NCBI GenBank assembly: GCA_902563505.1
Contig: CACEXK010000002.1
Location: 134,884-198,883, forward strand
Direction of reading: 5' to 3'
DNA from: an uncultured Alphaproteobacteria bacterium
GTDB lineage: Bacteria > Pseudomonadota > Alphaproteobacteria > Methylaequorales > Methylaequoraceae
Length of the DNA: 64,000 nucleotides
The notes under the pieces are model-generated. The model was not told the DNA's origin, ran no database searches, and saw nothing but the letters and a program-made list of their open reading frames with translations. This document shows positions 5,231-48,639 of this stretch, piece after piece; the stretch's first letter is position 1; each line of letters begins with the position of its first letter. A program made the translations under genes and the position numbers.

Positions 5231-6499
5231 ATGAGCGCAAAGTTTTTTTTATTTATAACATTTACAATAACTTTATTTTTCACTTTTTTTTCAGAAACAA
5301 GAGAATTATCAATAAAGCAACTTGAGGAAAGAAAAAAAGCTGATATTGAAAGAAAAAAAGAAAGAGAGAAAAGGGGAAAAAAGTCTTTTCAAAAAGAGAT
5401 TACAATTAAGAGTGAAATTGTTTTCATTTCAAAAGAAAGAGAATTACCCCCGGTACTATCTAATCTTGACCCGATTTTGGATGATGAGGGATTTTATGGT
5501 GTGAAGCTTGCCATTGAAGATAACCTGACAACTGGCAGATTTGTTGGTCATGATTACAAAGCCGAATTCCATAGAATTTTAATAGATGAGGATCTTGACA
5601 GTGAGTTTGAGAAATTAATGAAACAGGGAAAAAAATTCTTTGTTGTAGATTTTAATGAAGATGAATTGTTATCTCTAATGAAAATTCCGGGAATTGAGGA
5701 TGTTTTAATTTTTAATGTAAGAGCAAAGAATGACTCTTTGAGAAATGAAAATTGTAAGAAAAACTTTTTCCACATTCCACCTAGCTATTCTATTTTATCT
5801 GATGCCCTCACCCAGTATTTAGTAAAAAAAAAATGGAAAAAATGGTTTTTAGTAACAGGACCAGACAAAAATGATAAGCTATATTCTGATGCTCTAAAAA
5901 AATCAGCAAAAAAATTTAATGTCAAAATAAAAGAAGAAAAAATATGGGATTTCTCCTCAGATTTGCGAAGAACAGCTGGAAAAGAAGTACCAATTTTCAC
6001 AAAAGGTTCAAAGTATGATGTTCTTGTTGTTGCTGACGAAGAAGGTGAATTTGGAGAGTACCTTGCATATAGGACATGGGATCCTAGACCAATAGCAGGA
6101 ACACAGGGTTTGAAACCAAGTTCGTGGCATCGCACACATGAGCAGTGGGGGGCAACGCAGATGCAAAATAGGTTTAGAAGAGAAAGTGGAAGATGGATGA
6201 CTGAGGTTGACTATCATGCGTGGACTGCAGTAAGAGCTTTGGGAGAAACAATAACCAGAACTCAAAGTAATGATGTAAATGAAGTACAAAAGTATTTATT
6301 GGGTGAAAAATTTGGTTTGGGTGCTTACAAAGGTGTAAAGGTATCTTTTAGATCATGGAATGGTCAATTAAGACAACCAATTTTATTAGCTGCTCCGAGA
6401 TCAATGGTATCTGTTTCTCCCCAGGAGGGGTATATTCATCCAGTAAGTGAGCTTGATACTATGGGTGAAGATGAACCGGAATCTACTTGTAAATTTTAA
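5231..6499 (+). CDS. periplasmic substrate-binding protein of a PQQ-dehydrogenase-associated ABC system (PedA1-like)
   Basis: Has a signal peptide followed by a Lys/Glu-rich linker, then a type-I (Leu/Ile/Val-like) SBP body. It is the first gene of an SBP/beta-propeller/ATPase/ABC-2 permease quartet next to pqq and xoxF. Confidence 0.65.
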   Translation: MSAKFFLFITFTITLFFTFFSETRELSIKQLEERKKADIERKKEREKRGKKSFQKEITIKSEIVFISKERELPPVLSNLDPILDDEGFYGVKLAIEDNLTTGRFVGHDYKAEFHRILIDEDLDSEFEKLMKQGKKFFVVDFNEDELLSLMKIPGIEDVLIFNVRAKNDSLRNENCKKNFFHIPPSYSILSDALTQYLVKKKWKKWFLVTGPDKNDKLYSDALKKSAKKFNVKIKEEKIWDFSSDLRRTAGKEVPIFTKGSKYDVLVVADEEGEFGEYLAYRTWDPRPIAGTQGLKPSSWHRTHEQWGATQMQNRFRRESGRWMTEVDYHAWTAVRALGETITRTQSNDVNEVQKYLLGEKFGLGAYKGVKVSFRSWNGQLRQPILLAAPRSMVSVSPQEGYIHPVSELDTMGEDEPESTCKF

Positions 6500-6520
6500 A
6501 ATTTTTAATACATTAACATC

Positions 6521-7489
6521 ATGAAACTTCTTTTTTTAATAGTTGCTTTTTTTTCAATATTAAGCTTTTCAAATGTTAATGCAAATTTAGCCTACATAAC
6601 TAATGAGAAAGACAATACAGTAAGTGTAATTGATATAAAAAAGAAAAAAGTGATTAAAACCGTCAAGGTTGGTCAAAGACCTCGAGGAATCATCATGTCT
6701 AAGGATGGAAAGCTTGTTCTTATATGTGCATCAGATGATGACAGAGTAGAAGTTAGAGAAGCAGAAACTCTTAAGTTAAAATATCATTTGCCCTCGGGAC
6801 CTGATCCAGAACTGTTTATCCTATCGCCAGACGACAGTACTCTATATATAGCCAATGAGGATGATGCAATGGTAACTGTAGTTGATATGAATGATAAAAT
6901 GATAATTGATGACATACCAGTAGGAGTTGAGCCTGAAGGTATGGGACTAACAAATAATGGTAAGGTTTTAGTAAACACCTCTGAAACAACAAATATGGCT
7001 CATTTCATTGACACTAATACTCTCGAAATCATTGAAAATGTTCTAGTCGATGCGCGACCAAGAGTTGCAATGTTTACACCTGATGACAAAGAGGTATGGG
7101 TTTCTGCGGAAATAGGGGGTACTGTAAAAGTTATTAACCCAAGCTCCAAAGAAGTTACTCACACCATAGGATTTGAAATACCTGGAGTTAATGAGGAAAG
7201 CATCCAGCCAGTAGGCGTAAGACATTCAAAAGATGGTAAATACACATTTATAGCACTTGGTCCAGCTAACAGAATTGCCGTAGTCGATCAACAAACAAAA
7301 GAACTTGTTAAATATCTACTTGTTGGCCAGAGAGTTTGGCAACTAGCATTCACTCCTGATCAAAAAACTTTGTTAAGTACCAATGGAGTAAGTAATGATG
7401 TTTCTTTTATCAATGTAGACAAACTAAAAGTTGAAAAATCAGTTAAAGTTGGAAGATTTCCTTGGGGAGTTGTTATAAGCCCTAACTAG
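6521..7489 (+). CDS. YVTN-repeat beta-propeller protein, PQQ-dependent catabolism-associated (PedA2-like)
   Basis: Has a signal peptide and repeated units of the form 'Y(I/V)(T/A)NE.D..V.V(I/V)D' (LAYITNEKDNTVSVIDI, LYIANEDDAMVTVVDM, IAVVDQQT, SNDVSFINV). Confidence 0.8.
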   Translation: MKLLFLIVAFFSILSFSNVNANLAYITNEKDNTVSVIDIKKKKVIKTVKVGQRPRGIIMSKDGKLVLICASDDDRVEVREAETLKLKYHLPSGPDPELFILSPDDSTLYIANEDDAMVTVVDMNDKMIIDDIPVGVEPEGMGLTNNGKVLVNTSETTNMAHFIDTNTLEIIENVLVDARPRVAMFTPDDKEVWVSAEIGGTVKVINPSSKEVTHTIGFEIPGVNEESIQPVGVRHSKDGKYTFIALGPANRIAVVDQQTKELVKYLLVGQRVWQLAFTPDQKTLLSTNGVSNDVSFINVDKLKVEKSVKVGRFPWGVVISPN

Positions 7490-7517
7490 TTAACCTTTGG
7501 GAAATTAATTAAGCAAA

Positions 7518-8243
7518 ATGACTGTTGCCCTAGAAATAAAAAATGTTTCACATAAATTTGGAGAGTTTCTGGCCCTTAACGATGTCAGCTTGAATATATT
7601 ACCAGGTGATTTTACTGTACTACTTGGATTAAACGGTGCTGGTAAGACTACTCTTTATTCATTAATAACAAGGCTATATAACAACAATTCTGGATCAATA
7701 AAAATCTATGGATTTGATGTTCGTGAAAATTCAGTAAATGCTCTTAAAAATATTGGAGTTGTATTTCAACAACCAACATTAGACCTTGACTTAAGTGTTA
7801 AAGAGAATCTTAATTATCACTCATCTCTCCATGGTATAAGTTTTGCTGAGGCCAATAACAGAATTGACAGCGAAATTGGCAGAATAAAATTAGAGGATAA
7901 AATTAAAAGTAAAGTCAGAGCATTGTCAGGTGGACAAAGGCGAAGAGTAGAGATTGCAAGGTCACTTATCCATAGACCTAAACTATTACTTTTAGATGAA
8001 CCAACAGTTGGTTTAGATATAGGTTCTAGGCAAATGATTTTAAAACATGTTAAGTCTTTGTGTAAAAAAGATAATTTAGCAGTTCTTTGGGCCACTCATT
8101 TGATTGATGAGATTGATAAGGGAGAAAAAGTAATAATTATAGATAAAGGTAAAGTCCTTGAATCTGGTGATGTTTCAATGATTGTAAGAAAAACCAAAAC
8201 AAAAAATATTAGAGACGCATTTAACAAATTAGTAGGAATTTAA
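7518..8243 (+). CDS. ABC transporter ATP-binding protein
   Basis: Has Walker A (GLNGAGKTT), the ABC signature (LSGGQRRR) and Walker B (LLLLDEPT). Confidence 0.92.
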   Translation: MTVALEIKNVSHKFGEFLALNDVSLNILPGDFTVLLGLNGAGKTTLYSLITRLYNNNSGSIKIYGFDVRENSVNALKNIGVVFQQPTLDLDLSVKENLNYHSSLHGISFAEANNRIDSEIGRIKLEDKIKSKVRALSGGQRRRVEIARSLIHRPKLLLLDEPTVGLDIGSRQMILKHVKSLCKKDNLAVLWATHLIDEIDKGEKVIIIDKGKVLESGDVSMIVRKTKTKNIRDAFNKLVGI

Positions 8244-8249
8244 ATAATA

Positions 8250-9053
8250 ATGGAACTTGTAATTTACATACGGTGTTTTAAGGGGATTGTTTTGAGAGAG
8301 GCTTTGAGGTTCATTCATCAGAAAGAGAGGTTTTTCTCTGCATTAGTTAGACCATTGGTATGGCTTGGAATTTTTGCTGCAGGATTCAGATCAGTACTTG
8401 GGGTTGCAATTATTCCCCCTTACGAAACTTATATCCCCTATGAGGTATATATTGCACCAGGTTTGATAGCAATGATTCAATTATTTAACGGAATGCAAAG
8501 TTCTTTATCTATGGTTTATGACAGAGAAATGGGCAGTATGAAAACAATGCTAGTAAGTCCTATTCCTAGGTGGTTTTTGTTAATTTCAAAATTACTAGCT
8601 GGTGTTTTCGTTTCTATACTTCAGGTTTATGCTTTTTTGATAATAGCTTCCCTGTGGGATATAATTCCTCCAATTTCTGGATATTTTACGATTCTTCCTG
8701 CTTTAATAGTTTCAGGTCTGATGTTAGGTTCTTTGGGTATGTTTTTATCTTCAGCAATTAAACAACTGGAAAACTTTGCTGGTGTTATGAATTTTGTTAT
8801 ATTTCCTATGTTTTTTGCCTCATCCGCTCTTTATCCATTATGGAAAATTGAAGAAACGAGTGAATGGCTTTATTATTTTTGTTTTTATAATCCCTTTACT
8901 TATGCTGTTGAGTGCATCAGGTTTTCTCTTTATTCTCAGATAAATATAGAATACACAATTGGGATTCTTATATTTACATTAATATTTTTGTTTTTATCGA
9001 TTTTAGGATATGATCCCGCAAGAGGAAATTTACAAAAGAAAGCAGGAAAATAA
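8250..9053 (+). CDS. ABC-2 type transporter permease (PedC-like)
   Basis: 267-aa protein with about 6 TM segments and ABC-2 permease architecture. It lies directly after the ATPase gene. Confidence 0.8.
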   Translation: MELVIYIRCFKGIVLREALRFIHQKERFFSALVRPLVWLGIFAAGFRSVLGVAIIPPYETYIPYEVYIAPGLIAMIQLFNGMQSSLSMVYDREMGSMKTMLVSPIPRWFLLISKLLAGVFVSILQVYAFLIIASLWDIIPPISGYFTILPALIVSGLMLGSLGMFLSSAIKQLENFAGVMNFVIFPMFFASSALYPLWKIEETSEWLYYFCFYNPFTYAVECIRFSLYSQINIEYTIGILIFTLIFLFLSILGYDPARGNLQKKAGK

Positions 9054-9055
9054 AT

Positions 9056-9475
9056 ATGAAAAATTTTTTAAAATTTCTATGCATAATTGTTTTTATATCT
9101 TCAGCAACTCATGCTAAGGGAGATCTTGCAATTAGGGCAAAAAAATTAGAATTAAAACTTGGTTCAGAAAAAAGTGATTATGATATGTCACAAAAAGTTT
9201 TTGAGATGGAAACTGGTAAAGCATATAGACTTGAAATTTCTAGTATGGGTTTTAAAGAATACGAAATTGAAGCAGAAGATTTTTTTAGAAATATTTGGAT
9301 TAGAAATATTGAAGTTGCAGGAATAGAGATCGATACACCTGTCATTGAAGAAATTGAATTTGAAAGAGAAGGTGAAATAGAAATAAAGTTCGTTCCAATT
9401 CGTCCGGGTGAATATGACTTTGAGATCGAAGGGCTTCAAAGTAAAGGAATGGTTGGAAAGTTTATTGTGAAATAA
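9056..9475 (+). CDS. secreted, very acidic small protein with a degenerate cupredoxin-like C-terminus (function unknown)
   Basis: Has a signal peptide (…ISSATHA/KG). The start is 2 nt after the permease stop. It contains alternating E-x-E strands (EYEIEAED, EIEFEREGEIEIKF, DFEIEG). The C-terminus PGEYDFEIEG..KGMVGKFIVK resembles a cupredoxin tail but has no Cys or His at the usual copper-ligand positions. Confidence 0.6.
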   Translation: MKNFLKFLCIIVFISSATHAKGDLAIRAKKLELKLGSEKSDYDMSQKVFEMETGKAYRLEISSMGFKEYEIEAEDFFRNIWIRNIEVAGIEIDTPVIEEIEFEREGEIEIKFVPIRPGEYDFEIEGLQSKGMVGKFIVK

Positions 9476-9494
9476 TTTTATATGGAGTGTTATT

Positions 9495-10142
9495 ATGTAC
9501 CAAAAATTTATTATATTTTTTGTTTTTACTTTGATTTTCATTTTTTCTTTTAATGTATCTGCCAATCCACCTGAAGCCGCTCCCAAAAAATGGCCTTGTG
9601 ATCAAGTTTATAATCCAAAACTGAACTTAAGTGCTATATGGCAGGGCCCACCAATTGATAACGCTTTAAAAAATTGGTGGAAAGATGACGATATAATTGA
9701 TTATGTAAATACTCTTTCAAATCCTGTTCTCAAGGAAGATGATGGACTAAGAATAATTGAAGAGTTTGCAAAAAAATACACTTACCTTGGTTTAATAAAA
9801 AAACGAGAACAAAAAGAAAAATTAGTTTTTCTTTTTGCAGGACTATATCAAAAGGCAAAAGATCGAAGAAGTAGGCAATACAAAGGCATTATAAAGTTTG
9901 TTGAAAGGCAGGATTCATTCAGAAAAGCAATTGGCAAAGCTTCTAAATTAATAAGACAATATAGAAAAGATAAAATTGATATTAAAGATCAAAGATATGT
10001 AGATGCTTCTTCTCAGTTAGAATGGAATACAAGAGTATTTGATCAAAGAACTAGACTTACAGAATATATATGTGAGGAACCAGTTTTTAACACCCAAAGA
10101 TTGGGTTATCAATCCCGAAAGATATACTTATACCTACAATAA
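9495..10142 (+). CDS. secreted hypothetical protein (basic, two Cys)
   Basis: 215-aa ORF with an N-terminal signal-like segment (…FNVSANPPEA). I recognise no family. It is the last gene before pqqA. Confidence 0.55.
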   Translation: MYQKFIIFFVFTLIFIFSFNVSANPPEAAPKKWPCDQVYNPKLNLSAIWQGPPIDNALKNWWKDDDIIDYVNTLSNPVLKEDDGLRIIEEFAKKYTYLGLIKKREQKEKLVFLFAGLYQKAKDRRSRQYKGIIKFVERQDSFRKAIGKASKLIRQYRKDKIDIKDQRYVDASSQLEWNTRVFDQRTRLTEYICEEPVFNTQRLGYQSRKIYLYLQ

Positions 10143-10148
10143 ATTTAA

Positions 10149-10165
10149 ATGAATCTGATATGAAT
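10149..10165 (+). promoter_or_regulatory. direct repeat ATGAAT-N5-ATGAAT (11-bp phasing) upstream of pqqA
   Basis: The sequence taaATGAATctgatATGAATgtgta lies 92-108 nt upstream of the pqqA ATG. The same arrangement occurs twice in the xoxF upstream spacer. Confidence 0.55.
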
Positions 10166-10256
10166 GTGTAAATCAGAAAATTTTAATTAAAAAGATGTAT
10201 AACTATCCTGCACTCACATTAGGTGAGTTCGTTCAAACTATAACAAGGAGTTAATT

Positions 10257-10334
10257 ATGGCTTGGACAAAACCAATGATTTCTGAGATCTCTGTAGGTCT
10301 AGAAATCAATTCTTATGCTTGCGCTGAAAAGTAG
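10257..10334 (+). CDS. pqqA: PQQ precursor peptide PqqA
   Basis: A 25-codon ORF, MAWTKPMISEISVGLEINSYACAEK, not present in the ORF track. It has the conserved W-x-x-P motif and the E-x-x-x-Y crosslinking pair (EINSY). An AAGGAG SD lies 6 nt upstream, and pqqB is directly downstream. Confidence 0.93.
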   Translation: MAWTKPMISEISVGLEINSYACAEK

Positions 10335-10354: not shown

Positions 10355-10397
10355 GCCCCTTAAGTCCAATTGGCCTTAGGGGGCCTTTTAATTTTTT
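10355..10397 (+). terminator. stem-loop plus T-tract between pqqA and pqqB (attenuator / partial terminator)
   Basis: gcccCttaag (10355-10364) pairs with cttaGggggc (10375-10384), giving 10 bp with one G-U pair. The loop is 10 nt and is followed by ctttTaaTTTTTT. Confidence 0.7.
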
Positions 10398-15079: not shown

Positions 15080-15173
15080 ATTTATTCCACCCAATAAATG
15101 TTCTTATTTATTAATATATATATTAGTATTTATTATTCTAAATTCCAGAAAAAACTAAATAATTTTCTTTTAC

Positions 15174-15203
15174 AAAAAAAAAGCCCGGAAATACATCCGG
15201 GCT
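15174..15203 (-). terminator. rho-independent terminator after xoxF
   Basis: On the minus strand the sequence reads AGCCCGG-atgtattt-CCGGGCT followed by T9. This GC stem stands out in an otherwise AT-rich spacer, and it sits between xoxF and xoxG. Confidence 0.85.
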
Positions 15204-15230
15204 TTTCTATAAGCTATCTATCTTCAGCTA

Positions 15231-17063
15231 CTACGGTAGAGAGAAGACAGTCAATACGCCACCAAGAGCAGTGTGGTTATGTAGTGCAGAGTATGCACCC
15301 ACAGCACCAAGACCTGCAGTTGGGTCAGTAAGACCAGCAGCTAGACCAATTCCAGCCCAACCACCAACGCCTGATAGGATACCAACATATTGCTTACCTT
15401 TATGTTTGTAAGACATGAAGTTACCGATAATACCAGATGGTGTTTTGAACTTGAATAGTTCTTTACCAGTTTTACTTTCAACAGCTTTAGCATAACCTTC
15501 TAATGTTCCATAGAATGTAATACCACCAGCTGTTGCCATAGCACCAGACCATACAGAGAATGGCTCAGGGTTAGACCATACGATCTTACCTTTATCAGCA
15601 TCCCATGCGATCATGTTACCAAGATGAGTTCCGCCTGGAGCTGGGTACATAGATAATGTAGCACCAACATAAGCGTTACCAGCTACGTAATCAACTTTGA
15701 ATGGTTCGTAGTCCATACAAACATGGTTTGTTGGAACCATAAATAAACCAGAAAGTCTATCGTAAGCAGCAGGCTGTTGGTCTTTAGAACCTAGAGCCGC
15801 TGGGCAGATGTTAGTAGTGTTAACATCTTCACCTTGGTGTGCAGTTGAATATCTGTCTTGTACTTGCGGACGACCAGTTTTCATATCAACATGAGTTGCC
15901 CAGTTCACTGCTGGATCATATTTTTCAGCAACAAGTAGTTCACCTGAAGCTCTATCCATAGTGTAAGCAAATCCGTTTCTGTCGAAGTGCACAAGTGCTT
16001 GACGGTTTTTACCTTTAACTTTCATGTCAACAAGAATCATCTCGTTAACACCGTCGTAATCCCACTCATCATATGGAGTCATTTGATATAACCATTTAGC
16101 CATACCATTGTCTGGGTTACGAGCGTTAATCGTCATAGACCATTTGTTGTCACCAGGACGAACAACTGGGTTCCATGTTGATGGGTTACCTGTACCGTAG
16201 TACAAAGTATTTAATTTAGAGTCATAACCGTAGAAACCCCAAATTGAACCACCACCGATTTTCCATGCATCACCAGGCCAAGTTTTCAAAGATGAATCTT
16301 TACCAATTGGTTTTAACATAGAAGTAGTTTTGTTTGGATCAACAAGCATATCCTTATCTGGACCCATGCTGTATGCTCTCCAAAGTCTCTTACCACTGTT
16401 GATGTCATAACTTGTCCAGTTACATCTAACACCAAATTCAGCACCAGAACAACCAACACCTACAGTATCTTTGATAATGAAAGGTTGACCTGAACCAGTT
16501 GATGCAGAAACACCATATTTACCAGTACCAGCGTGTAGATTTGTAGTAATCCACTTTTCTTTACCAGTTTTAGCGTCTAATGCAATTACTGAAGTATCAG
16601 CAGCGTGAAGAACGATTGTACCATTTGGATGATAGTTAACACCACGGTTAACGTTATCACAACACATAACTGAGATAACTCTATCCATAGTTTCACCACC
16701 TGGGTACTTACCACCTTTTACAGGGTTGTACTTCCAAATGATTCTTTGGTCATCATTAAGATCTAAAGCGTACACGATATTTGGGATAGCAGTATGTACA
16801 TACATTGTATCACCAATAACAAGTGGACCACCTTCGTGACCTCTTAAAACACCAGTAGAAAAAGTCCATGCGACTTTTAAGCTACCAACATTACTTTTGT
16901 TGATTTGATCCAAAGTTGTGTAACGATGTCCAGCGTAATCACCAGACTGTTGTACCCATTGACTAGGATCTTTCATCATTTTTTCTAGCTTAGAATTAGC
17001 ACTTACTGCAAGAGGAAGAGCTAAAGCAGCAGAAGCGATGATGCTTTTTTTCAAAATACTCAT
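15231..17063 (-). CDS. xoxF: PQQ-dependent methanol dehydrogenase, XoxF type (lanthanide-dependent signature)
   Basis: 610 aa with a signal peptide. Has the vicinal Cys pair ([10 protein letters not shown]) and tryptophan-docking propeller repeats. The segment [10 protein letters not shown] carries D-Y-D, where MxaF-type enzymes have D-x-A. An AAGGAG SD is present. Confidence 0.95.
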
Positions 17064-17191
17064 AAAGTATTTCTCCTTTATTAAGTTAATATAAAGAGTA
17101 GAAACTACTCGGTTATTAAAATGTCGGAATCAAACTAGATAACAAAAGAAAGATGTCACTTTTTTGATTTCCTCCCATTGTCATATTATTT

Positions 17192-17197
17192 ATGAAT
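17192..17197 (+). promoter_or_regulatory. solo ATGAAT half-site in the xoxF upstream spacer
   Basis: A single tATGAATagc copy lies 26 nt from the first paired site. Confidence 0.3.
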
Positions 17198-17217
17198 AGC
17201 CCAAATTCAAGGAAAAA

Positions 17218-17234
17218 ATGAATGCAAGATGAAT
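17218..17234 (+). promoter_or_regulatory. direct repeat ATGAAT-N5-ATGAAT (site 1, xoxF / soxYZ-like divergent spacer)
   Basis: The sequence is aaaATGAATgcaagATGAATgctgtgta. It is followed by a TGTGTAG-tt-TGTGTAG tandem at 17238-17253. Confidence 0.55.
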
Positions 17235-17344
17235 GCTGTGTAGTTTGTGTAGCGGCAAACAATCTTTTTCCAACAAGATCAATTACTTATAAGCACAAAT
17301 CAATAAAAAAAAAGCTGTGGATAATTTTTATTTTTTTTTATTAA

Positions 17345-17361
17345 ATGAATAGAAGATGAAT
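17345..17361 (+). promoter_or_regulatory. direct repeat ATGAAT-N5-ATGAAT (site 2)
   Basis: The sequence taaATGAATagaagATGAATacaaa lies 157-173 nt upstream of the soxYZ-like ATG, in the same orientation as the pqqA site. Confidence 0.55.
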
Positions 17362-17440
17362 ACAAATTTTAAAAATTGTTCAGAATTGAAAAAAATGCAA
17401 TAAAATCAATGCTTTAATTGATTGATTTTAATAGGTAGCT

Positions 17441-17517: not shown

Positions 17518-18345
17518 ATGAAATTAAACAATATTTTTTTCAAATTTTTTATATTATTTTCGCTAGTTAATTTTAGTTCAAATACATATTCTAAGGATAA
17601 ACTTCCTGAGCCAGTAGTATGGGATACAGATCTCAAAGAATTTTTCTTTGATAATGATGAAATACAAGACGGCTCAAAAATCTTTTCTTTAGAAACTCCA
17701 TACAGAGCTCTTGATGCAGCTATAGTTCCAATAACAGTAAAATTTAAACAAAAACAATCAGAAAACAATTATGTCAAATCATTATCATTAATTATTGATG
17801 AAAATCCATCTCCTCTGGTAGGGAAGTTCGAATTTACACCAAAAATGGGAGACCCTTCATTCACAACAAGAATCAGAGTTGATAAATATACCTATGTAAG
17901 GGCAGTTATTGAAATGAATGATAGTAAGAAATTTATGGTTGCTAATTATGTAAAAGCTGCAGGTGGTTGCTCTGCCCCAGCTCTTGCTGACATGGATTCA
18001 ATAATGGCAAGATTAGGTAAAATGAAAATGAAATTTATAAAAACAGGGAAAAAAGGCGAGATAAATAAAGCGCAATTTTTAATCAGTCACCCGAACTATT
18101 CAGGACTTCAGTTTAACCAGCTAACCAGGTCGGAAATACCCGCCCATTTTGTAAACTATATAAGTATAGAACAGGATGGTAACTTGATATTTCAGGCTAA
18201 TCCAGATATCTCTTTATCTGAAGACCCATCATTCACCTTCAATTATATTGACTCTGGTGGACCACTTAAGGTAACAGTAAAAGATAGTGATGGTTTGGAT
18301 TTTGCGGGTGAATTTCCAACATCCAATATTGTATCAGCAAAATAG
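17518..18345 (+). CDS. SoxY-SoxZ fusion, quinoprotein-dehydrogenase-associated SoxYZ-like carrier protein
   Basis: Has a signal peptide. The N-terminal half is SoxY-like (ALDAAIVPITVKF, IIDENPSPLVGKFEF, and it ends in VKAAGGCSAP, which contains the carrier-Cys GGC motif). The C-terminal half is SoxZ-like (FLISHPNYSG, IPAHFVNYISIEQDG, ISLSEDPSFTF, VTVKDSDG). Confidence 0.8.
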   Translation: MKLNNIFFKFFILFSLVNFSSNTYSKDKLPEPVVWDTDLKEFFFDNDEIQDGSKIFSLETPYRALDAAIVPITVKFKQKQSENNYVKSLSLIIDENPSPLVGKFEFTPKMGDPSFTTRIRVDKYTYVRAVIEMNDSKKFMVANYVKAAGGCSAPALADMDSIMARLGKMKMKFIKTGKKGEINKAQFLISHPNYSGLQFNQLTRSEIPAHFVNYISIEQDGNLIFQANPDISLSEDPSFTFNYIDSGGPLKVTVKDSDGLDFAGEFPTSNIVSAK

Positions 18346-47463: not shown

Positions 47464-48639
47464 TTAATATTTCCTCCCCTTCCAAATATTTCCGCCTCTC
47501 AAAGTATAATTGAACGCTGAATTTAAAGTCATAAAAATATAAAAAAACGCTGAAATTGGAAGAGAAAATGAATAATAAAATCTCAATTTGTAAAATCTTA
47601 TTGTAGGTATCAATGAAAATGTCATCAAAAAAATTGTAATGAGATTTATTAAAAATTCATTTTTTTTAAAGCTTGAAAATTGATTAAATAAATTGAAATA
47701 CGGAAATATGTAAATTATTAACATTCCAATAATTGAAAATATAACTAAAAATAACGAATGATTTAATTGTTCAAATGCTGTTCTAGTCACCATCTTCCAT
47801 ATTTCAGAGAGTTTTTTATAATTTCTCTGACTAGAAATTTTGTCAGTTAATCCCAGCCAAATATTACCTTTTTCTTTTAAAAGTTTTGCAATATTACAAT
47901 CATCAATAACTCTATCTTTAATCTTGGCATAAAGATTTTCTTCTTTAAAAGCTGATGATTTACATAAAATAAAACCTCCTGCTGCCGCAGCTAGATTGTT
48001 TTTTTTATTATTTACTTTACTGAATGGATAAATTTTTTGAAAAAAGTATATAAAAGACGGGATTAAAAGTTTTTCCCAGAAAGCATCACATTTTAATTTT
48101 GCCATGAGCGACACCATTATGAGTTTTTTTTCATCTAAAAATTCTAAGGTATTAGCAATCGTATTTTCTTTCATTTTTATATCGGAGTCTAAAAAAAGGA
48201 AATGAGAAAATTTTTTATTTTTTAAAAAATCAACTGCTTGATAAAGAGCCCAAACCTTACCACTCCAACCAACAGGTAATTTTTTCCCTTTTAAAATTTT
48301 GAAATTTTTAATCCCTCTTCTTTTTAGAAAAATCTCTGACTTTTCAGAGGTTTTGTCAGTGCTATTGTCATCAACAATTAAAATATATTTTTGTTTGAAG
48401 CTTTGCCTTAATATTGAATCTAGAGTTTTGGTGATATTTTTAGATTCGTTCCTTGCGGGAATCACTATACACAAATTAGCTTTGTCTAATTTATTTACTT
48501 CTTTTTTACCAAAAAAAAAATTTTCAAAAATAATTTTGTTAGTCCAGAAAAGGCTATTGATTCCAAAATCCTGTCTTGAATAAAGAAATATTAAATAGAT
48601 CCAAATAGTTAAAGAAATTGAAGAAAGAAGAAAGTCCAT
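47464..48639 (-). CDS. hpnB: hopanoid-associated family-2 glycosyltransferase
   Basis: Has an N-terminal TM segment, a GT2 core (CIVIPARNE, IVDDNSTD, FLDSD) and C-terminal TM segments. Confidence 0.75.
   Translation of the reverse strand: MDFLLSSISLTIWIYLIFLYSRQDFGINSLFWTNKIIFENFFFGKKEVNKLDKANLCIVIPARNESKNITKTLDSILRQSFKQKYILIVDDNSTDKTSEKSEIFLKRRGIKNFKILKGKKLPVGWSGKVWALYQAVDFLKNKKFSHFLFLDSDIKMKENTIANTLEFLDEKKLIMVSLMAKLKCDAFWEKLLIPSFIYFFQKIYPFSKVNNKKNNLAAAAGGFILCKSSAFKEENLYAKIKDRVIDDCNIAKLLKEKGNIWLGLTDKISSQRNYKKLSEIWKMVTRTAFEQLNHSLFLVIFSIIGMLIIYIFPYFNLFNQFSSFKKNEFLINLITIFLMTFSLIPTIRFYKLRFYYSFSLPISAFFYIFMTLNSAFNYTLRGGNIWKGRKY

Follow-up and report, generated by a model that had tools for sequence, protein, structure and literature searches.

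An ATGAAY direct repeat common to the pqqA and xoxF control regions of the marine methylotroph order TMED127

Could a single regulatory protein act on both the gene for the apo-enzyme of a lanthanide methanol dehydrogenase (xoxF5) and the one encoding the peptide from which its cofactor, pyrroloquinoline quinone, is made (pqqA)? This question is raised by a 64,000-nt stretch of contig CACEXK010000002.1 from an uncultured alphaproteobacterium (hereafter the window), in which the direct repeat ATGAAT-N5-ATGAAT precedes pqqA and is found twice more in the spacer between xoxF and a SoxYZ-like gene. The repeat is a real, deeply conserved cis-regulatory box common to xoxF and pqqA. Nine species of uncultured marine Alphaproteobacteria have relatives of the XoxF protein with 95-99% identity, beyond which identity falls to 69%, and the lineage of these carriers has been described as the order TMED127 ("Methylaequorales"), whose members have streamlined genomes of ~1.5 Mb and are probably obligate methylotrophs (PMC12542740). 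The window corresponds to the methylotrophy island of this order and contains lutABEFCG, pqq, xox, tetrahydromethanopterin (H4MPT)-pathway and hopanoid genes.

The repeat and its conservation

In the window, ATGAAT-N5-ATGAAT has exactly three matches, at 10149, 17218 and 17345 and all on the plus strand, against 0.05 expected from 100 dinucleotide-preserving shuffles, none of which reached three. The three exact copies with 11-bp spacing that the original prediction had reported are therefore borne out, and so are its assignments of pqqA, xoxF and the SoxYZ-like gene. When one mismatch is allowed, as had been suggested for a check, the sole extra match in the window falls in a coding region at 47644, which is chance level. 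In the same way, a weight-matrix scan of the window gives the three sites 20-26 bits and the next best match 12.8 bits, a gap of >7 bits, this match and nearly all weaker ones lying in coding sequence. The spacing is equally selective: among ATGAAY pairs placed 6-40 nt apart, only those at 11 nt are enriched, both in the window (n=3) and in the relatives (n=24).

The box has been kept during the diversification of the order. Nine other species and 50 environmental contigs have ATGAAY-N5-ATGAAY at matching positions, as they should if the proposed conservation upstream of pqqA and xoxF were real, and these loci span at least four named TMED127 genera (GCA-2691245, TMED13, CACBWF01, and SP4073). 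The environmental sequences were obtained by scanning marine metagenomes for a pattern anchored at the start of xoxF, a search that gave 52 further contigs with 49 distinct spacers; they inform the xoxF spacer, none reaching pqqA, and each informative contig has at least one box. In ~530 kb, all 110 exact copies fall at the three orthologous sites and on one strand. This total comprises 27/27 copies in the window and the nine species, and 83/83 copies in 270 kb of environmental contigs, which are all within the xoxF spacer and on the same strand. The box before pqqA is maintained as ATGAAT-N5-ATGAAY in the 9/9 genomes that cover the region, with eight different N5 spacers (alignment A1). Of the two copies in the xoxF spacer, box A is found in all 10 genomes and in nearly all environmental spacers, and box B in 8/10 genomes, being absent from the two most divergent genera (CACBWF01 and SP4073). 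Considering all spacers, box B is present in 46/59; the 13 spacers with a single module (see below) include those of CACBWF01 and SP4073 and 11 environmental contigs.

What is conserved is the pair of hexamers and their phase. The hexamers are invariant and the N5 spacer varies freely, as seen in alignments A1 and A2 and in a logo built from 97 distinct site contexts, which reads AAA-w-ATGAAY-r-n-w-A-g-ATGAAY-R. The repeat unit is thus an 11-bp A-n-ATGAAY-R placed twice head to tail, with the 11-bp period exact in 110/110 copies and TGAA in both halves of 97/97 distinct sites. The last hexamer position is divided between T and C, 66:31 in the first half and 48:49 in the second. All six half-sites of the window have GAAT, so that the other strand reads ATTCAT and not GTTCAT. 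Two details of the original prediction have to be revised. The AAA stretch on the 5' side is a preference (A in 76-84 of the 97 sites) and not a rule, and the TGTGTA-like tail said to follow the second hexamer is not conserved, since only the first base after that hexamer is constrained, being always a purine. The broader proposal of a common cis-element in front of methanol-oxidation genes holds in so far as the box is orthologously conserved; the two spacer copies reflect the duplication of a module, and the box is absent from the other one-carbon genes of the island (H4MPT/fae/mch/fhc). From this pattern, it is very probable that a protein binds the box.

Architecture of the two control regions

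The features of both regions are collected in Table 1. A sigma-70-type promoter can be predicted for xoxF, with TTGAAT as -35 in 52/57, a 16-nt spacer in 53/57 and TAATAT as -10 in 51/57 distinct spacers; these elements were measured directly in the 57, whereas the conservation profile was drawn from 45 distinct two-module spacers. Transcription would begin near 17176 and produce a leader of ~113 nt. Box A is 7 nt upstream of the -35 in the window (7 or 9 nt in relatives), which places it at about -42 to -58 of the predicted start, and on the xoxF strand it reads RTTCAT-N5-RTTCAT. Box B is 127 bp farther from xoxF, at about -169 to -185. Both boxes belong to ~127-bp modules that align colinearly and without gaps, an alignment which indicates that the two spacer boxes are a tandem duplication of one module and not independent sites. 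Most genera have this tandem duplication (46 spacers with two modules, 13 with one).

Table 1. Coordinates of the box and of neighbouring features in the window
Feature	Position	Strand	Sequence and remarks
pqqA box	10149..10165	+	ATGAATctgatATGAAT (also written taaATGAATctgatATGAATgtgta); exact match to ATGAAT-N5-ATGAAT
xoxF box A	17218..17234	+	ATGAATgcaagATGAAT; exact match
xoxF box B	17345..17361	+	ATGAATagaagATGAAT; exact match
pqqA promoter-proximal blocks	10172..10203	+	ATCA 10172-10175, TTAA 10183-10186, TATAAC 10198-10203 (candidate -10)
pqqA	10257..10334	+	25 aa, MAWTKPMISEISVGLEINSYACAEK; presumed target gene; TIGR02107, 36.7 bits vs cut-off 20
xoxF core promoter, predicted	17163..17210	-	-35 TTGAAT 17205-17210, 16-nt spacer, -10 TAATAT 17183-17188
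Conserved Shine-Dalgarno-like block	17163-17176	-	GGGAGGAAATCAAA; invariant; at predicted 5' end of xoxF transcript
IHF-type site A	17277..17289	+	gATCAAttacTTA; 42 nt after box A; matches WATCAANNNNTTR
A-tract + TGTGGATAA	17305..17324	+	reverse complement of DnaA-box consensus TTATCCACA; between modules
Rest of module B	17378..17416	+	conserved GTTCAG 17378-17383, then IHF-type site B
IHF-type site B	17404..17416	+	AATCAAtgctTTA; 42 nt after box B
xoxF	15231-17063	-	start at 17063; xoxJ, xoxG likewise minus strand
SoxYZ-like gene	17518-18345		quinoprotein-associated; divergent from xoxF
lutABEFCG	5231-10142		lanthanide-uptake genes

The second half of each module is a site of the IHF type, the consensus of which is WATCAANNNNTTR (PMC10380432), with an A/T-rich 5' flank. 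After 98 box instances, from 58 distinct spacers, this consensus is matched at 9/9 positions in 56 and at 8/9 in 31, compared with a perfect match at 1/2000 random anchors, and the offset between box and site is exactly 42 nt in 62 cases. The conserved columns of the block are ATCAA and TTA, the four middle bases being free. The alternative that the same TAAAAT-CAAT...CTTA block, ~40 nt past each box, is a rightward -10, with the box at -61, was rejected because ATCAA and TTA separated by four free bases are the IHF consensus. The genome AG-892-F10, a congener of the relatives L001-L003 and L006 (all with three boxes), has ihfB in its gene table, and ihfA is not among the entries listed.

With respect to the predicted xoxF start, the elements follow each other as box A (~-50), IHF-type site A (~-107), the A-tract with TGTGGATAA (~-140), box B (~-177), and IHF-type site B (~-234); A-tracts flank box A. 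The single copy of TGTGGATAA in the window, with 0.74 expected, is at chance in number and not in conservation: the element is kept in all 10 genomes and in 47/50 informative environmental spacers, including the one-module genomes. A replication origin, which a DnaA box, IHF sites and CtrA-like repeats might call to mind, was rejected because there is one DnaA box only, the GC skew follows the gene strand without a switch, and dnaA of AG-892-F10 is ~134 kb away.

An extra ATGAAT half-site (17192-17197, plus strand) is located inside the -35/-10 spacer of xoxF, TGAAT being present there in 46/57 spacers. In these 46 spacers it forms, together with the -35, an inverted pair TGAAT-N7-ATTCA (17192-17209 in the window). 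The same factor could repress from this half-site. In one environmental contig (L093) the sequence is unrelated from ~45 nt upstream of xoxF, because of either a rearrangement or an assembly chimera.

Other observations concern the xoxF transcript itself. A stem-loop at 17096-17110, just upstream of the true xoxF ribosome-binding site, has its pairing apparently kept by differing sequences between genera, and it is, with the block GGGAGGAAATCAAA, a candidate mRNA-stabilising element of an extremely abundant transcript. Right after the xoxF stop (~15169-15207, minus strand) there is a strong intrinsic terminator, AAAAGCCCGG-loop-CCGGGC followed by U9, that a simple terminator scan missed. It fits the ~300-fold fall from xoxF (351,021 transcripts per million, TPM) to xoxG (1,087 TPM) in the published AG-892-F10 data.

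On the pqqA side, the lutG stop codon is followed after 6 nt by a single box, which ends 91 nt before the pqqA ATG (10257). Downstream of it, alignment A1 shows no variation in the blocks ATCA, TTAA, and TATA (10198-10201). With TATAAC taken as the -10, transcription would start near 10210 and the box would be at about -61 to -45; the absence of a recognisable -35 would make this look like an activator-dependent promoter. No IHF-type partner of the pqqA box was recognised. The gene has a strong Shine-Dalgarno sequence and codes for a peptide that is identical across all relatives. In the leader (10204-10256) a stem-loop stands just after the TATA block; its arms differ between genera and seem complementary, and the consensus fold is weak, with misaligned stems. 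A further, terminator-like hairpin (10372-10385) after pqqA would uncouple this gene from pqqBCDE downstream.

Candidate proteins for the box

The reading that we prefer, with a confidence only somewhat above even, is that a response regulator of the OmpR/PhoB type binds the box, as its operator, in the form of a head-to-tail dimer, an assignment drawn from the geometry and from the regulator inventory of the lineage. By analogy with PhoP, PmrA, PhoB, and CtrA, the strict 11-bp head-to-tail arrangement of a 9-position unit appears as a signature of winged-helix response regulators. As for the inventory, the entries listed from the AG-892-F10 gene table (one third) include at least three OmpR-family regulators, namely PhoB and two proteins named PhoP, one of the latter with a neighbouring histidine kinase; the three are encoded by CDS.273, CDS.397, and CDS.433. 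The other regulators among these entries are one LysR-type protein, HrcA, and a "hypothetical transcriptional regulator". For the homologues in M. extorquens AM1 (META1p2704/2705) of a two-component pair, CDS.432/433, no mention was found in the literature. The regulator would thus be a winged-helix protein encoded elsewhere in the ~1.5-Mb genome, and one operator would link xoxF5 with pqqA. At xoxF the box would act as one half of a composite module, where the bend induced by IHF could bring the distal box B to the promoter; at pqqA a single box in the opposite orientation would act upstream of a TATA-type -10.

Several known systems can be compared with this proposal. In its layout (hexamer-N5-hexamer, 17 bp, 11-bp period) the box is like the PhoP/PmrA boxes that regulators of the OmpR/PhoB family use in enterobacteria. 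The half-site of PhoP is (T/G)GTTTA, whereas here it is ATGAAY, and no regulator is encoded nearby. PhoP boxes are located at or upstream of the -35, one or two per promoter and in both orientations at defined distances; they activate at 12, 23 or 33 nt (direct) and at 27, 37 or 48 nt (reverse) from the -10, and second boxes enhance or repress (PMC3335776). The 29-32 nt between box and predicted -10 in the TMED127 promoters fit none of these distance classes. Another example is TorR, also an OmpR-family regulator. The TorR box is a decamer, CTGTTCATAT, with the core GTTCAT (PMC9239176), and the opposite-strand unit of our box, Y-RTTCAT-n-T, fits it; in fact, ATATGAACAG, the exact reverse complement of the decamer, is found verbatim in L001 and in site B of L003. 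The boxes of the xoxF spacer share with the tor boxes that they are repeated directly between divergent genes; tor boxes also adjoin the -35 of the gene that is activated and point toward this gene, and box A is placed in this way with respect to xoxF. Unlike the tor boxes, those of the spacer have two half-sites per site at strictly 11 bp, while in the E. coli torR-torC region, read directly, the abutting boxes 1 and 2 have a 10-bp period and the distance between boxes 3 and 4 is 22 bp; moreover, the window has no torS, torT or torCAD. The likeness may be a convergence among "GTTCA-type" winged-helix sites. Finally, NarL sites act on narG through an IHF site, and the xoxF spacer has the same order of elements, with IHF-type site A between an upstream regulator site (box B) and the sigma-70 promoter. 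The differences are that box and IHF-type site constitute a fixed, tandemly duplicated 42-nt unit, that the proximal box abuts the -35, and that the IHF site is predicted.

The in situ expression of these genes can be followed in Table S5 of PMC12542740, in which 35 diel samples from BATS (Bermuda Atlantic Time-series Study) were mapped to AG-892-F10; each gene was taken here as its share of non-xoxF transcripts. In TMED127, xoxF5 accounts for 16-57% of the transcripts and has a daily cycle that peaks at 16-20 h (PMC12542740). The profile of xoxF correlates with those of xoxG (rho 0.67) and xoxJ (rho 0.72). The genes pqqB-E have their maximum at 00-04 h and are weakly antiphasic to xoxF. They are the only pqq genes covered, pqqA not being annotated in the table, and they are a poor proxy for pqqA because of the terminator-like hairpin that follows it.

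A number of results weigh against a common OmpR/PhoB-type regulator. A Pfam/NCBIfam scan of every open reading frame of the window revealed no transcription factor, DNA-binding or kinase domain, and without a transcription-factor gene within the 64 kb no regulator can be assigned by synteny. The box reads ATGAAY toward pqqA, the opposite of its orientation toward xoxF, and its distance to the predicted -10 (29-31 nt at xoxF vs 32 nt at pqqA) does not keep it on one helical face. A tandem repeat with a one-turn period is characteristic of the OmpR family and not exclusive to it. In three environmental variants (L100, L110, and L111) box A has decayed and box B is intact, so that box A is not indispensable. 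The expression data also disagree: xoxF shows rho 0.10 with the SoxYZ-like gene and -0.25, -0.43, -0.02, and -0.28 with pqqB, pqqC, pqqD, and pqqE, respectively, and correlates better (rho 0.77) with lutB, a gene with no box. These discordant profiles do not support a simple common activator; they fit modules that serve xoxF rather than SoxYZ and are compatible with opposite effects at xoxF and pqq.

Other explanations are less probable. It is possible, if rather doubtful, that the box is the operator of a protein from another family (NarL/FixJ-type, AraC-, MucR-, XRE-like or lineage-specific), given that its conservation and exclusivity say only that something binds. NarL-type proteins use direct and inverted arrangements, and an inverted pair is formed with the xoxF -35 in most spacers; this pair, however, takes one arm from the -35 hexamer itself, and the boxes proper are strictly direct repeats, with no heptamers in a 7-2-7 inverted pair. 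The lack of such a pair and of any LuxR-type entry among the AG-892-F10 entries listed is weak evidence that a NarL-type regulator is less likely than an OmpR/PhoB-type one, to which the 11-bp head-to-tail geometry points. One candidate might be CDS.78 of AG-892-F10, a 389-aa "hypothetical transcriptional regulator" that is very highly expressed (~3000 TPM), although its expression is flat over the day. This gene is next to nrdAB, ~6 kb beyond the left end of the window, and has no AM1 homologue.

A CtrA-like operator with its specificity shifted from TTAA to TGAA is improbable. According to this explanation, the box, together with the DnaA-box-like element and the IHF-type sites, would tie xoxF5/pqqA transcription to the cell cycle and give rise to the diel rhythm. 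TGAA-N7-TGAA has the same geometry and 11-bp period as the CtrA box TTAA-N7-TTAA, differs by one base per half-site, and occurs in an alphaproteobacterial host; CtrA itself is an OmpR-family protein that acts on multi-site promoters and both activates and represses (PMC11264516), and it is conserved in Alphaproteobacteria (PMC7200025). The conserved consensus DnaA box of the spacer and the timing of expression, with xoxF as a share of non-xoxF transcripts peaking at 12-16 h and nrdAB at night, would agree with it. On the other hand, the second base of the half-site is G in 97/97 distinct sites and never the T of CtrA, the targets are metabolic, no cell-cycle gene in the DNA examined has the box, and one DnaA box in the window is the frequency expected by chance.

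It is highly unlikely that the hexamers are promoter elements, either tandem -35-like hexamers or a region of the UP-element kind that boosts a very strong promoter. ATGAAT is one base from the xoxF -35 TTGAAT, at pqqA a conserved TAAT block lies 18 nt downstream of the second hexamer, A-tracts surround box A, and xoxF has the large share of transcripts quoted above (PMC12542740). UP elements, however, are compositional, without invariant hexamers, a free spacer or a strict 11-bp period; no -10-like element is found at a suitable distance from box B, box A read as a -35 points away from xoxF, and two phased copies at three sites would be left unexplained. That the element acts as RNA, through a leader element or a four-codon mini-ORF, is scarcely credible. 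The 11-nt spacing always yields ATG AAT NNN NNA TGA, with start and stop built into the repeat, and lutG and pqqA are not separated by an obvious terminator; nevertheless, the mini-ORF lacks the Shine-Dalgarno sequence that is strong in the real genes, the variation is not codon-like, conserved bases beyond the TGA stay unexplained, box A is situated upstream of xoxF's divergent promoter, a place from which rightward transcription is not expected, and no Rfam family matches the control regions at E<=1. Least credible of all is the SOS operator of alphaproteobacterial LexA, the consensus of which, GAAC-N7-GAAC (GTTC-N7-GTTC), has the same direct-repeat geometry, is contained in ATGAAC-N5-ATGAAC and agrees with the copies that have GAAC in one or both halves, since six of six window half-sites are GAAT, T and C are mixed at the last position, the invariant "AT" prefix is foreign to the LexA box, the targets are xoxF and pqqA instead of DNA-repair genes, and, as weak evidence, neither "LexA" nor "recA" is among the AG-892-F10 entries listed.

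The island and its biological meaning

The ~45-kb "methylotrophy island" of TMED127 has been drawn from CM1_5m.P40 (PMC12542740), which is locus L006 of our set of relatives. The island in the window is syntenic with the xox/pqq/H4MPT/lut island of M. extorquens AM1 (window 9495-10257 vs META1p1748-1753). In AM1, mxbM/mxbD are placed beside pqqB-E, whereas here the pair is absent at that position and lutG abuts pqqA instead. Since the TMED127 island has no mxaFI, the box probably does not have the role of a lanthanide "switch" from one enzyme to another. Among the neighbours, lutB (6521-7489) is expressed ~10-fold above the rest of its operon in the diel data, with no box or obvious promoter upstream, and the unannotated genes all have N-terminal hydrophobic leaders that, judged by eye, resemble signal peptides.

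In other methylotrophs (Methylorubrum and Methylomicrobium), the two-component systems MxbDM, MxcQE, MxaB, and MxaY, which control xox, mxa, and pqq genes, have been defined genetically, and no DNA operator is described in those works (PMC11845868, PMC5784242, PMC6414531). In the works considered here, no xox regulator had a defined candidate operator before this box. It is a familiar kind of element; what is unusual is its fixed, duplicated pairing with an IHF-type site. In addition, it is found in the organism that dominates open-ocean methanol-dehydrogenase transcription: TMED127 bacteria are reported to surpass the other methanol oxidisers of oligotrophic surface waters in transcriptional activity, and xoxF5 is the most abundant transcript of this dominant open-ocean methylotroph, nothing being reported there on promoters or regulators of the order (PMC12542740). 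If the CtrA-like alternative were true, the diel rhythm reported for methanol oxidation in the sea would reflect synchronised bacterial cell cycles and not the methanol supply. For an uncultured organism, the 17-bp box provides a handle, as it can serve as bait for the few response regulators of a 1.5-Mb genome, and it could define a regulon in silico, for instance by showing whether gdh, the co-cycling gene of a PQQ glucose dehydrogenase, belongs to it, and help to interpret metatranscriptomes. Its presence at both loci suggests that, in this lineage, the genes of the apo-enzyme and of the cofactor precursor are wired to one factor.

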